Virus record (IMG/VR): IMGVR_UViG_3300031414_000001
Coordinates: 304,437 to 368,436 of that record
DNA: 64,000 nucleotides
Strand: one strand, 5' to 3'
Source: a virus
Lineage: Duplodnaviria; Heunggongvirae; Uroviricota; Caudoviricetes
The notes under the pieces are model-generated. The model did no database searches and was not told the DNA's origin. It saw only the letters and a list, made by a program, of their open reading frames with translations. A program made the translations under genes and the position numbers. Numbering within the stretch: position 1 is the stretch's first letter; each line of letters opens with the position of its first letter. Positions 27,461 to 56,653 of this stretch are shown here, piece by piece.

Positions 27461-27541
27461 TGAGTACAATAGGGGTTTCACCTACACTGACGACCAGCAT
27501 TACCTGTTAAAATCGCTGCTCTATAATTAAGCTATATACTC
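27461..27541 (-). ncRNA. tRNA-like RNA with aberrant anticodon arm
   Basis: acceptor GAGTATA/TGTACTC, D arm GCTT/GAGC, T arm GTAGG-TGAAACC-CCTAT, enlarged anticodon region. Confidence 0.55.
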
Positions 27542-36742: not shown

Positions 36743-36890
36743 TAGGATGTACTGCCGCTCTCAGTACTGTATATACTTGATTATTACAATCTGACCTATA
36801 CAGGTGCATCGCGGTTCTCGTCATATAATTTTACAAGCTGGGAGAATCATTCAAGCTTGTTTCACACAGGAAGTAATGAAATCTTTAAAT

Positions 36891-36965
36891 TGGCAGGCCG
36901 GAGAGGGTTCGAACCTCTGATCCGAGAATCAAAATCTCGTGTGTTACCAATTACACCACCAGCCT
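36891..36965 (-). tRNA. trnQ: tRNA-Gln(UUG)
   Basis: cloverleaf with G73-CCA. Confidence 0.93.
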
Positions 36966-36969
36966 AATC

Positions 36970-37015
36970 AAGAATCTATATATTATTCAACCGTTTTACT
37001 TGCTGGAAGATTCTT
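36970..37015 (-). ncRNA. CAGCAA-stem element, minimal (46 nt)
   Basis: AAGAATCT/AGATTCTT stem with CAGCAA. Confidence 0.65.
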
Positions 37016-37062
37016 TGTAATATTTGGATTACATATTATTAAACCATCCAAATATCACTTTG

Positions 37063-37349: not shown

Positions 37350-37473
37350 AATGAGTACAAATTGAGTTTACAGAAGTCCTTCCAAGGGACTAATACGTAT
37401 TCTATTCTGACCTTAGTAGGATAACATGCTATCCGTGTCACACCATAGTACGCCTGGTGAATTTGATTAATAC

Positions 37474-37588
37474 TGGAATTTATTTCGTTTTAGGCGGCTG
37501 CTCTCCCAACTGAGCTACAGTACTAGTACTGACAGGACTCGAACCTGCGACATGCTGCGTGATAGAAAGTGTTTGCTGTTAAATTCCA
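37474..37588 (-). ncRNA. circularly permuted tRNA-like RNA (YrlA/Y-RNA-like) with CAGCAA stem
   Basis: order T arm, acceptor 3' strand CAGTACT, acceptor 5' strand AGTACTG, D arm, all enclosed by TGGAATTTA/TAAATTCCA. Confidence 0.85.
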
Positions 37589-37605
37589 AATTTGTTACTA
37601 ACGCA

Positions 37606-38017: not shown

Positions 38018-38035
38018 ATCTTACCTAATTAATAC

Positions 38036-38171
38036 AAGAATTCATCGTTTATTGGATAGCCGTGTCTACCAGTTTCACCATCACTATTCGTACTGACATA
38101 GTTCGTAGGACTCGAACCTACACGCCATAAGGCCGCTATTTGGGTTAACATTTAGTTGCTGTTGAATTCTT
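38036..38171 (-). ncRNA. circularly permuted Leu-type tRNA-like RNA with CAGCAA stem
   Basis: ATAGC + long variable arm GCC-TTAT-GGC + T arm, closed acceptor, Leu-type D arm, GCTAT; ends AAGAATTCA/TGAATTCTT. Confidence 0.8.
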
Positions 38172-38257
38172 TAAGTTCTTGTTGTAGTACGTTATAGGCT
38201 TACTGATTCATCCAAAGTGCTACCTATTGTGTTGGATAATTTCACAGTACTACTTAG

Positions 38258-39687: not shown

Positions 39688-39744
39688 ATGTTCGTTGTAT
39701 GGCTTCAACTTTATTTAGTAATTTTAAACACTAAATTAAAAAGC

Positions 39745-39804
39745 TAGAATCTATAATCTTTGTTTTCACCAATTGAATAAGAGTATGTTTGCTGTTAGAT
39801 TCTA
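39745..39804 (-). ncRNA. CAGCAA-stem element, minimal
   Basis: TAGAATCTA/TAGATTCTA, ACAGCAAAC, TGAAAAC. Confidence 0.75.
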
Positions 39805-39806
39805 TG

Positions 39807-39928
39807 CGAGAAAGGTTGGACTCGAACCAACGACCAGGCCATTAAAAGTGGATGAAGTATGGTTGCTGAGAAATTACAGTACTGTAATTTTGGGTTTCTA
39901 CCTGCTCTACCAACTGAGCTACTTTCTC
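39807..39928 (-). tRNA. tRNA(UUU)-like gene with 49-nt CAGCAA insertion in anticodon stem
   Basis: removing the insert restores GGCCA-CTTTTAA-TGGCC and a 73-nt cloverleaf. Confidence 0.75.
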
Positions 39929-39939
39929 ATAAATTTTTA

Positions 39940-40015
39940 GGGGCAAGGAATGGAGTTGAACCATTTCCAGGATCAGTGGCATCTCCAGTGTTTTATCACT
40001 CAGAAGACAATGCCC
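39940..40015 (-). pseudogene. degenerate tRNA-like sequence
   Basis: T arm AATGG-TTCAACT-CCATT, GGGCA/TGCCC ends, non-canonical D and anticodon arms. Confidence 0.45.
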
Positions 40016-40118
40016 ATTGGGTAATTAAGTTCCTCAAGCCTCTACTAAGTTATAGTTCCCTATAGATGAATATAACGTTCGCTTTCTGCGGCCTCTAATG
40101 TGCCTATCCTTAATTACT

Positions 40119-40395: not shown

Positions 40396-40423
40396 GAGTG
40401 CTAATTCGGTTTTAATTAAAAAC

Positions 40424-40529
40424 AAGAATCGTTGTTTTCTATCCCCACAACCAGTGGTAAATCGGAATTGAACCGAAGGTGTTTTTCGCCAAATGAAATA
40501 TAAAGAGTTATGTTTGCTGGACGATTCTT
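40424..40529 (-). ncRNA. permuted tRNA-like RNA lacking D arm, CAGCAA stem
   Basis: AAGAATCGT/ACGATTCTT; T arm TTCGG-TTCAATT-CCGAT; closed acceptor hairpin. Confidence 0.7.
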
Positions 40530-40533
40530 TTAG

Positions 40534-40771: not shown

Positions 40772-40796
40772 TTTGTTATCCTTTATTGAAGGAACT

Positions 40797-40913
40797 GAAA
40801 TCTTTGTTTTTCTGGACCCAATCACAGCCTACATAGCAACAAGGCTGCTGCGGATTCGAACCGCACCGTTTTTTTCGCATAAAAAATAATTGTTTTATTT
40901 GCTGTAAGATTTC
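40797..40913 (-). ncRNA. permuted tRNA-like RNA, CAGCAA stem
   Basis: GAAATCTT/AAGATTTC; T arm TGCGG-TTCGAAT-CCGCA; closed CAGCCT/AGGCTG. Confidence 0.7.
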
Positions 40914-40960
40914 GTGTTGCTAATACTTTTATTATACCACAAATTTTTGATTCGTTTCAT

Positions 40961-41440: not shown

Positions 41441-41463
41441 AACTAATCTCTTAATTAAGATCA

Positions 41464-41585
41464 GGAATCTTGTTTTATCCAGCACCAAGCTCCCACTATT
41501 TGAATAAGGCATATGTTCGTGGGTGGGGATTCGAACCCCGTCGTTTCGTTTTCATCAAAAGGTTTATTTTTTGCTGTAAGATTCC
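41464..41585 (-). ncRNA. permuted tRNA-like RNA, CAGCAA stem
   Basis: GGAATCTT/AAGATTCC; GGGG-TTCGAAT-CCCC; CCCAC/GTGGG; mini D arm AGC-TTGGT-GCT. Confidence 0.75.
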
Positions 41586-41628
41586 GATGCCTTATGTTCT
41601 ATATTATACCAGAAATTTTTCTTCCGTT

Positions 41629-48618: not shown

Positions 48619-48635
48619 AATATATCCTCAATAAG

Positions 48636-48752
48636 CGGTGAGTGCAGGAATCGAACCTACGGCTTCGGCGTGAAAGGCAATTGTATTGATTGCTGTTAGA
48701 TTCAGTACTGGAATCCATTTTTTACGCTATTTTACCACTAAACTAACTCACC
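48636..48752 (-). tRNA. tRNA(UUC)-like gene with 46-nt CAGCAA insertion
   Basis: acceptor GGTGAGT/ACTCACC G73; insert 48679-48724 = GATTC-CAGTACT-GAATC + ACAGCAA; loop CTTTCAC. Confidence 0.7.
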
Positions 48753-49760: not shown

Positions 49761-49829
49761 TTCTGTACCCTCATTGATTAAGAGATAGTACTATATCATA
49801 CCGCTTCGTTCCCGTCAAGGAAAATTTAG

Positions 49830-49906
49830 TGCAAGGGGATGGACTCGAACCATCGACACGGAGTTATACTAAGATAATCTTGCTCTACCGTCTGAGCTAC
49901 CCTTGC
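49830..49906 (-). pseudogene. tRNA with aberrant enlarged anticodon arm (TAG-like loop)
   Basis: perfect acceptor, D and T arms; 21 nt instead of 17 in the anticodon arm. Confidence 0.65.
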
Positions 49907-50429: not shown

Positions 50430-50444
50430 ATGTATTCCAATTTG

Positions 50445-50556
50445 TAGAGAGGGCAGGATTCGAACCTGCGTTACGTTCGTATGAATGAAATTTATGGATG
50501 CCGTAAGATTCCATCTGGAATCGCTTTACGTGTCCTAGCCGCTAGACGACCTCTCT
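50445..50556 (-). tRNA. tRNA-like gene with 39-nt CAGCAA-variant insertion
   Basis: acceptor AGAGAGG/CCTCTCT; insert GATTCC-AGAT-GGAATC + ACGGCA; 8-nt loop ATTCATAC after excision. Confidence 0.65.
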
Positions 50557-56296: not shown

Positions 56297-56407
56297 GGTG
56301 CTAAGAACAGGATTCGAACCTGTAAGGAAGCCTCGCGGTACTTCCCACGTCCTATTGTCGCTTTCGCTATCGTCAGACGCTACGTTTACCAATTCCGTCA
56401 TCTCAGC
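56297..56407 (-). ncRNA. class II tRNA-like RNA with 24-nt anticodon loop and 23-nt variable arm
   Basis: GCTGAGA/TCTTAGC, Leu-type D arm, GCGTC/GACGT stem, canonical T arm. Confidence 0.7.
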
Positions 56408-56473: not shown

Positions 56474-56580
56474 ATAGTGTTTGGTGAGAAAGGTTCAGGC
56501 TACCTTGAATAGAATACAGGACTTAAGTGCAAGTTGCTGAACTCTTACACACCCTCATTTCATCGGTTCTTTCTCATTTG

Positions 56581-56653
56581 TGGCTCATACCAGATTCGAA
56601 CTGGTGTGGACAGAGATTTAGAGTCTCCCGCTACGCCTCTCAGCTAATGAGCC
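56581..56653 (-). tRNA. amber suppressor tRNA (anticodon CUA)
   Basis: intact cloverleaf GGCTCAT/ATGAGCC, GGAGA-CT-CTA-AA-TCTCT, canonical T arm. Confidence 0.92.

Follow-up and report, generated by a model that had tools for sequence, protein, structure and literature searches.

A tRNA-Lys(UUU)-derived gene of a jumbo phage is split in its anticodon stem by a structured handle that may serve a Ro60-like protein

The window analyzed here, a stretch of 64,000 nucleotides of viral DNA, comes from the 370,971-bp record of a jumbo phage, whose nearest relatives are Erwinia phage Kaldavass (96%) and Xanthomonas phage XbC2 (91.5%), followed by the phages CBB and GAP32 of the genus Mimasvirus. About 29 tRNA genes were found on the minus strand, and uninterrupted copies of the Lys(UUU), Glu(UUC) and Met tRNAs are present in this same genome. 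The locus under study, which is missed by a default ARAGORN run, is a true gene derived from tRNA-Lys(UUU), and the jumbo phage is of the Rak2/Mimasvirus type. Its parts are as follows:

39807-39928, minus strand: whole interrupted tRNA-Lys(UUU)-type gene (122 nt), recognized by RF00005 and by the cloverleaf read from the sequence
39901-39928, minus strand: 5' part, with the 5' strand of the acceptor stem, the D arm, A26 and G27 G28, delimited by sequence reading, split search and pairing
39852-39900, minus strand: 49-nt insert, a closed copy of the hairpin-plus-CAGCAA handle (best split after nucleotide 28)
39871-39890, minus strand: handle hairpin, with a 7-bp stem and a 6-nt loop
39858-39868, minus strand: CAGCAA motif (itself at 39863-39868) and its 3' extension, invariant in two homologue alignments
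39807-39851, minus strand: 3' part, with nucleotides 29-31, the CUUUUAA loop, the 3' strand of the anticodon stem, the variable loop, the T arm, the 3' strand of the acceptor stem and G73

The Rfam tRNA model RF00005 matches this gene with 46.1 bits (gathering score 29), leaving 64 unaligned nucleotides in place of the 15-nt anticodon arm. The acceptor, D and T arms are normal, and the gene displays a 7-bp acceptor stem, a standard Lys-type D arm, A26 and the variable loop UGGUC, the D arm and the variable loop being of the gammaproteobacterial Lys type. Downstream of G27 G28 one reads the 49-nt insert, CCA, the loop CUUUUAA with the anticodon UUU (39844-39846, minus strand), and UGGCC. A contiguous 5-bp anticodon stem with a 7-nt loop is thus absent from the gene as encoded, the 49 nucleotides splitting the stem. 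The original prediction had placed the CAGCAA insert between nucleotides 28 and 29, and this position indeed ranks first, with 5/5 Watson-Crick pairs, when split positions, loop lengths and variable-loop lengths are searched exhaustively. As had also been predicted, removal of the insert in silico leaves a 73-nt tRNA with a perfect GGCCA/UGGCC stem, which can be read directly from the sequence.

Fourteen distinct Lys homologues were collected, from related and unrelated phages. The orthologues in named phages are as follows:

Kaldavass and XbC2: orthologues of 122 nt, annotated as tRNA-Lys(TTT)
GAP32, L004:1268-1387: not annotated as a tRNA, lying under a small CDS annotated as a 'putative membrane protein'
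CBB, L003:1260-1378: annotated as tRNA-Ser(AGA)
Serratia phage BF, L005:294-418: annotated as tRNA-Pseudo

Further interrupted Lys homologues occur in the pEa_SNUABM phages and in seven metagenomic phage contigs. The interrupted gene has been maintained in two or more phage genera and in unrelated metagenomic phages. Once an insert of 43-55 nt is removed, all 14 homologues regain a perfect 5-bp stem, for which they use eight different sequences. The split lies after nucleotide 28, except for one homologue where it lies after nucleotide 29 and two where 28/29 is ambiguous. Over the 14 homologues, 95.6% of the cells are paired, versus 32-47% when the partners are slid by 1-3 columns; compensatory changes occur in 21 of the 28 pairs, and none of 500 shuffles matched the observed pairing values. 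The acceptor, D and T arms all pair and covary; positions 27:43 and 28:42 pair in 100% of the homologues and show compensatory changes; covariation is seen for all three pairs spanning the insert; and each of the seven pairs of the insert hairpin, which are 84-92% paired across the homologues, shows compensatory change. Together, these pairing and covariation statistics indicate that selection acts on the tRNA body as well as on the split stem and the insert. Loss of the junction pairing was part of what would have refuted the original prediction, which is not refuted in this respect, since the insert-spanning pairs are conserved and covary. The discriminator base is G73 in the clade of the window and in the BF-type copies, and A73 in GAP32, CBB, pEa50 and five metagenomic copies; CCA is encoded in the Eneladusvirus copies. 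Perfect stems also occur with non-canonical loops, namely in the CBB copy (10 nt, without UUU), in a Met-like tRNA of the window (8 nt), and in the contigs L097 (8 nt) and L151 (10 nt).

When introns are allowed, ARAGORN calls at this locus a 51-nt intron at 30/31 and an ochre-suppressor anticodon UUA, a reading with an A.G mismatch in the stem and a 4-nt variable loop. We rejected this call, to which we attach next to no probability, because the Lys reading, with the UUU loop originally predicted, gives 5/5 Watson-Crick pairs in every homologue and these pairs covary.

The consensus of the handle consists of UA(R)AAAC, a covarying helix of 5-8 bp, 1-3 nucleotides, ACAGCAA and a linker of 9-13 nt. 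The motif CAGCAAMMAWA occurs five times in the window, as compared to 0.52 expected occurrences. Four tRNAs of the genome carry the closed handle at the same structural site, three of them found with ARAGORN when introns were allowed. Besides tRNA-Lys and a Pro-like tRNA located outside the window, they are:

48635-48752, minus strand: second closed-handle tRNA, Glu(UUC)-like, split after nucleotide 29
50444-50556, minus strand: third closed-handle tRNA, with a Glu body, the variant handle ACGGCA and an 8-nt anticodon loop

A scan of viral contigs irrespective of the anticodon, in which ACAGCAA had to be followed by a T loop 25-55 nt later, returned at least 117 stretches and, beyond the Lys homologues, at least 31 further distinct handle-interrupted tRNAs. 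For the 31 listed tRNAs, removing 40-62 nt at 27/28 to 29/30 yields in nearly all cases a 5-bp stem and a canonical 7-nt loop, with a permissive parser and a few doubtful assignments. Their anticodons include those for Thr, Asp, Asn, Pro, Val, Arg, Lys and Glu, and most interrupted tRNAs combine the canonical 7-nt loop with U33 and a purine at position 37.

The window holds other unusual tRNA calls, all on the minus strand. ARAGORN reports a tRNA with the four-base anticodon ttag in an 8-nt loop at 49829-49906 and an amber-suppressor tRNA (cta) at 56580-56653. The 111-nt class II-like tRNA body at 56297-56407, which ARAGORN reads only by assuming a 17-nt insert at position 40, lacks the CAGCAA motif and is therefore an odd tRNA of another kind. 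Rfam finds a tRNA match of 40.9 bits at 27461-27541, where ARAGORN makes no call.

Small RNAs resembling Y RNAs are framed by the module that forms the insert of tRNA-Lys, there in circularly permuted form. About ten such open copies lie in the tRNA region of the window. In these copies the strand located 5' of ACAGCAA pairs with the strand that follows a downstream UA(R)AAAC, and the helix is formed by the two ends of the unit. A genome-wide motif-plus-helix filter gave 130 matches, mostly due to chance, and only the GAAUC-type copies of the tRNA region were kept. The open copies include the following:

39743-39805, minus strand: small open handle with an 8-bp stem enclosing ACAGCAA...AAAAC, an empty hairpin that starts 2 nt past the 3' end of the interrupted tRNA-Lys
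37472-37589, minus strand: YrlA-like open handle around a permuted tRNA body with T arm, closed acceptor and D arm
38034-38172, minus strand: open handle framing a class II-type permuted tRNA body
40422-40530, minus strand: open-handle RNA directly 3' of tRNA-Glu, with at least a T-arm-like element
40794-40915, minus strand: open-handle small RNA with a T arm, a closed acceptor-like stem and a D arm, and a TGnTATAAT promoter-like site upstream
41461-41587, minus strand: open-handle small RNA with a tRNA-like cargo (T arm, closed acceptor-like stem, D arm) and a TGnTATAAT promoter-like site upstream

Five open copies have a tRNA-like cargo, and the remaining ones include small empty hairpins. 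In both the closed and the open copies, the handle exits the tRNA body at the top of the anticodon stem, and the single-stranded segments joining the helix to the body measure about 11 and about 20 nt. The Rfam YrlA model aligns to 37472-37589 with 41.9 bits, which is below its gathering score, matching the tRNA-like core and leaving the stem unmatched. No Rfam family was found to cover the handle. Where the open handles frame YrlA-like permuted tRNA bodies, as several do, they cannot be introns.

Two further elements were observed on the minus strand. An empty handle hairpin lies at 36838-37018, just upstream of tRNA-Gln, with a loop comprising CCAGCAAG and UAAAAC. The gap upstream of tRNA-Lys (39929-40118) contains an element resembling a T arm plus acceptor, which has no handle. 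Together with the D arm of tRNA-Lys, this element produces a weak match to the YrlA family RF02553 (20.3 bits at 39878-39989, for a gathering score of 69).

The comparison of the open reading frames surrounding the metagenomic interrupted tRNA-Lys genes with those of the present genome revealed one shared protein, which comprises the DUF2828 and DUF7788 domains. Its gene (G000:176259-177773, minus strand) is about 167 kb away from the interrupted tRNA-Lys in this genome, and it lies beside the tRNA in two metagenomic contigs. The family counts more than 7,800 relatives at E ≤ 1e-5, and the GAP32 copy is annotated "RNA-binding protein". Searches of PDB sequences gave no match for this protein, and AlphaFold2 (AF2) run on the single sequence yielded a model with a pLDDT of 44; with an alignment of 39 sequences, the pLDDT was 87 and the pTM 0.83. 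When the latter model was compared with the PDB by Foldseek, the 13 best matches, the sole ones at E ≤ 0.001, were all Ro60 structures, which suggests that the protein adopts a Ro60-like fold. These matches extend over the full length (E from 4e-9 to 3e-6, TM about 0.55), rank before isolated vWA domains, and include Xenopus Ro60 with RNA, Deinococcus Rsr, human Ro60 and the Ro60 of Thermus phage phiLo. The Pfam TROVE domain (PF05731) has no match in the genome, the likeness to Ro60 being seen at the level of the fold.

A Ro60-like gene thus co-occurs with the interrupted tRNAs, as is expected of partners of Y RNAs, both in the present genome and in 22 of the 27 listed contigs with handle-interrupted tRNAs, versus 2 of 29 control contigs selected for an ordinary tRNA with the same D-arm type (Fisher p = 1e-8); one of the two DUF2828-positive controls is a 350-kb jumbo phage. 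All eight listed contigs with handle tRNAs that are at least 90% complete encode DUF2828. In most of 25 DUF2828 neighborhoods, ACAGCAA handles occur within a few hundred nucleotides of the gene, usually just upstream and on the same strand, and many neighborhoods contain several handles, both closed and open. Y RNA genes adjoin Ro60 genes likewise, as shown by bacterial rsr with YrlA (PMC4201824) and by the Ro60 gene of Thermus phage phiLo, which has the same layout with two upstream Y-like RNAs (PMC12135203). Across the 25 loci, no nuclease or ligase was found as a conserved neighbor of DUF2828. In the present genome, an Rnl2-family RNA ligase with an N-terminal PHA02142 OB-fold domain adjoins the Ro60-like gene (L024:2718-3983, minus strand, i.e. 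G000:178217-179482). With Rnl1, which has the T4 C-terminal domain (G000:243661-244809, minus strand), the ligase set of the phage amounts to Rnl1 and two Rnl2-family ligases.

Other kinds of over-long tRNAs were seen in contigs encoding DUF2828. One is a 106-nt tRNA-Ile(gat) call of a distant jumbo-phage contig (L032:448-553, plus strand), whose anticodon loop has a 31-nt hairpin insert without CAGCAA; this other type of phage tRNA insert lies about 5.4 kb away from DUF2828. Three over-long tRNA-like calls of 113-128 nt adjoin the DUF2828 gene of a 100-kb phage (contig G013, 96705-98098, loci L275/L291); they lack an exact ACAGCAA and may contain divergent handles.

On balance, we think that the insert is a retained handle of the Ro60 type, which would make the product of the gene a tRNA-shaped partner RNA of a Ro60-like protein, as judged from sequence and from analogy with known Ro60 particles. 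Because the insert is a structured handle that travels with Ro60-like protein genes, such a partner RNA is more likely than a tRNA with an ordinary intron. We infer from the co-occurrence and from the Ro60 analogy that the DUF2828 protein binds the handle, which would be kept in the mature RNA to dock this protein. The RNA would not be a decoding tRNA; its anticodon stem would form around the handle as a three-way junction, and the product would be a Y RNA shaped like a tRNA, exposing an entire tRNA body together with a genuine Lys anticodon arm. The candidate targets of the resulting particle would be tRNA-binding enzymes, anticodon nucleases and RNA-repair enzymes. A retained protein-binding arm was the alternative offered in the original prediction, and it fits the data better than the small protein-spliced intron that this prediction had put forward, given that the module frames Y-RNA-like RNAs and co-occurs with a Ro60-fold gene. 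No direct support for the intron itself, in the form of a BHB motif, EndA or RtcB, was found in this phage.

The intron reading, which we hold to be a serious though distinctly less probable alternative, assumes that the pre-tRNA folds with its anticodon stem formed, that an endonuclease cuts both bases of the handle (5' junction N|UA, 3' junction usually after U), and that an ATP-dependent ligase (Rnl2-type or Rnl1) seals the nick left inside the duplex to generate a working tRNA-Lys. In that case, a role of the Ro60-like protein in marking or chaperoning the substrate is conceivable, as is a Y-like RNA consisting of the excised hairpin itself. This scenario would account for the exact 5-bp stems that each of the 14 Lys homologues and most of the other 31 listed tRNAs regain upon removal of the insert, and for the free acceptor ends with their discriminators and, sometimes, an encoded CCA. 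It also agrees with the canonical loops and the diverse anticodons (Thr, Asp, Asn, Pro, Val, Arg, Glu, Lys), which are what selection for decoding would be expected to produce and would probably require excision, thereby arguing against retention. An insert located inside a helix would leave a nicked duplex, which is the preferred substrate of T4 Rnl2, and with Rnl1 and two Rnl2-family ligases, one of them adjoining the DUF2828 gene, cutting and rejoining are feasible in this phage. Unexplained tRNA introns also occur in Lak megaphages (PMC6784885). Other points against retention are the CCA encoded in the Eneladusvirus copies and the 167 kb that separate the DUF2828 gene from tRNA-Lys. However, the intron reading lacks a candidate endonuclease: EndA (PF01974), RtcB and Tpt1 are absent from the phage genome. 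To our knowledge, bacteria generally lack EndA. No BHB motif was found at the insert, where, in the required register, the AGCA of the 5' exon does not pair with the CUUC of the intron, as verified by hand. Self-splicing finds no footing either, the insert of 49 nt being far from the core of about 200 nt or more of group I and group II introns; Rfam searches of the locus returned no intron or small ribozyme at E ≤ 1, and the junction nucleotides (a 5' exon ending in G, an insert ending in U) do not correspond to those of group I or group II introns.

Several observations weigh at the same time against an intron and in favor of the retained handle. DUF2828 has no conserved nuclease or ligase neighbor in the 25 loci, and Rnl1, Rnl2 and RtcB are undetectable in three near-complete phages that possess both such tRNAs and DUF2828. 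The intron reading also has to cope with a variable spacing between CAGCAA and the 3' junction (9-13 nt) and with a split site that ranges from 27/28 to 29/30. The module also occurs where an intron is impossible and splicing would be senseless, i.e., around permuted bodies and as empty hairpins, and its junction with the tRNA body coincides exactly with that of the YrlA handle. In some copies the stem is intact but the loop is not usable, and the genome has its uninterrupted Lys(UUU), Glu(UUC) and Met tRNAs. This redundancy and the many module copies located between tRNA genes, some of them as empty hairpins, could also be explained by the inactivation of a tRNA by a small selfish repeat (MITE-like, with inverted ends), giving an RNA devoid of function. 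We regard this explanation as very improbable, in view of the maintenance of the gene in at least two phage genera and unrelated metagenomic phages, of the compensatory changes in the acceptor, T, anticodon and insert helices, of the tight link to a single protein family (DUF2828), and of the identical structural insertion site in many different tRNAs. A more speculative proposal, which we consider rather unlikely, is that the CAGCAA handle is the counterpart in bacterial viruses of the archaeal BHB signal, the Ro60-like particle marking it for rejoining after a cut in each of its two strands. If so, the closed handles would be protein-spliced tRNA introns delivering working tRNAs on demand, the open handles around permuted bodies would give rise to circular or re-joined RNAs, and a bacterial system would for the first time be seen to splice tRNAs by a protein-dependent pathway.

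Particles made of Ro60 and Y RNAs are conserved from bacteria to humans, and the role of their tRNA-like parts is unclear. The present data would add a distant Ro60-fold family (DUF2828) paired with a distinct handle, which is built into otherwise complete tRNAs with many anticodons. If the handle is retained, these RNAs would be Y RNAs displaying a full tRNA, including its anticodon, which would point to tRNA-recognizing enzymes or host anticodon nucleases as targets and would provide a defined RNA-protein pair for testing. If it is excised, viruses infecting bacteria would have a protein-dependent route of tRNA splicing. Either way, these genes are mislabeled by current annotation, as tRNA-Ser, tRNA-Pseudo or a membrane-protein CDS in close relatives.

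As regards the known systems, the protein-spliced introns of archaea and eukaryotes (BHB, EndA, RtcB) are similar to the present insert in being short, too small to self-splice and located at a non-canonical position of the stem, and in that the same signal also frames permuted tRNA-like bodies. They differ from it by the bulge-helix-bulge and EndA, both lacking here in a bacterial virus, whereas the handle has its own conserved sequence tied to an RNA-binding protein family. The 'enigmatic' tRNA introns of Lak megaphages (Devoto et al. 2019, PMC6784885) are likewise short conserved inserts of huge phages with no known splicing route, but, by their description, they lie in the anticodon loop, one of them may encode a tRNA, and neither a CAGCAA handle nor a link to Ro60 is reported for them. 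In the literature on phage tRNA introns, DUF2828 and Ro60, we found no description of DUF2828-associated RNAs or of handle-interrupted tRNAs.

The closest parallel to the retained handle is provided by the YrlA Y RNAs and Ro60/Rsr (RF02553; Chen et al. 2014, PMC4201824; phiLo Ro60 with Yrl1/2, PMC12135203). Similarly to YrlA, the present RNAs combine a tRNA-derived RNA with a conserved stem-and-loop module that leaves the tRNA body at the position of the anticodon stem and accompanies the gene of a protein predicted to have the Ro60 fold, directly beside which the RNAs lie in other phages. In contrast to YrlA, the partner is a DUF2828+DUF7788 protein instead of a Pfam TROVE protein, the handle sequence is unlike the Ro-binding stem, the acceptor end of the tRNA-Lys RNA is open and its anticodon arm complete, and the module is a closed hairpin inside a stem, whereas the stem of YrlA is formed by the RNA termini.

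The Class I RNAs of Dictyostelium have a short terminal stem beside a conserved 11-nt motif (RF01414; Kjellin et al. 2021, PMC7919456), a definition that corresponds to the architecture of the open handles. Both groups share a covarying short stem, an unpaired 11-nt motif ending in ACAGCAA and a variable remainder. The RF01414 model aligns CUUACAGCAA...UAAAACAAUU of the open copy at 40794-40915, running through CUUACAGCAA and the following A-rich stretch, with 25.9 bits for a gathering score of 41.5. The Class I RNAs differ in being eukaryotic, 42-65 nt long, devoid of a tRNA body and bound by an RRM protein, and the module of tRNA-Lys differs in being circularly permuted and closed. The motif that they have in common with the phage handle hints at what these long-unexplained RNAs bind.
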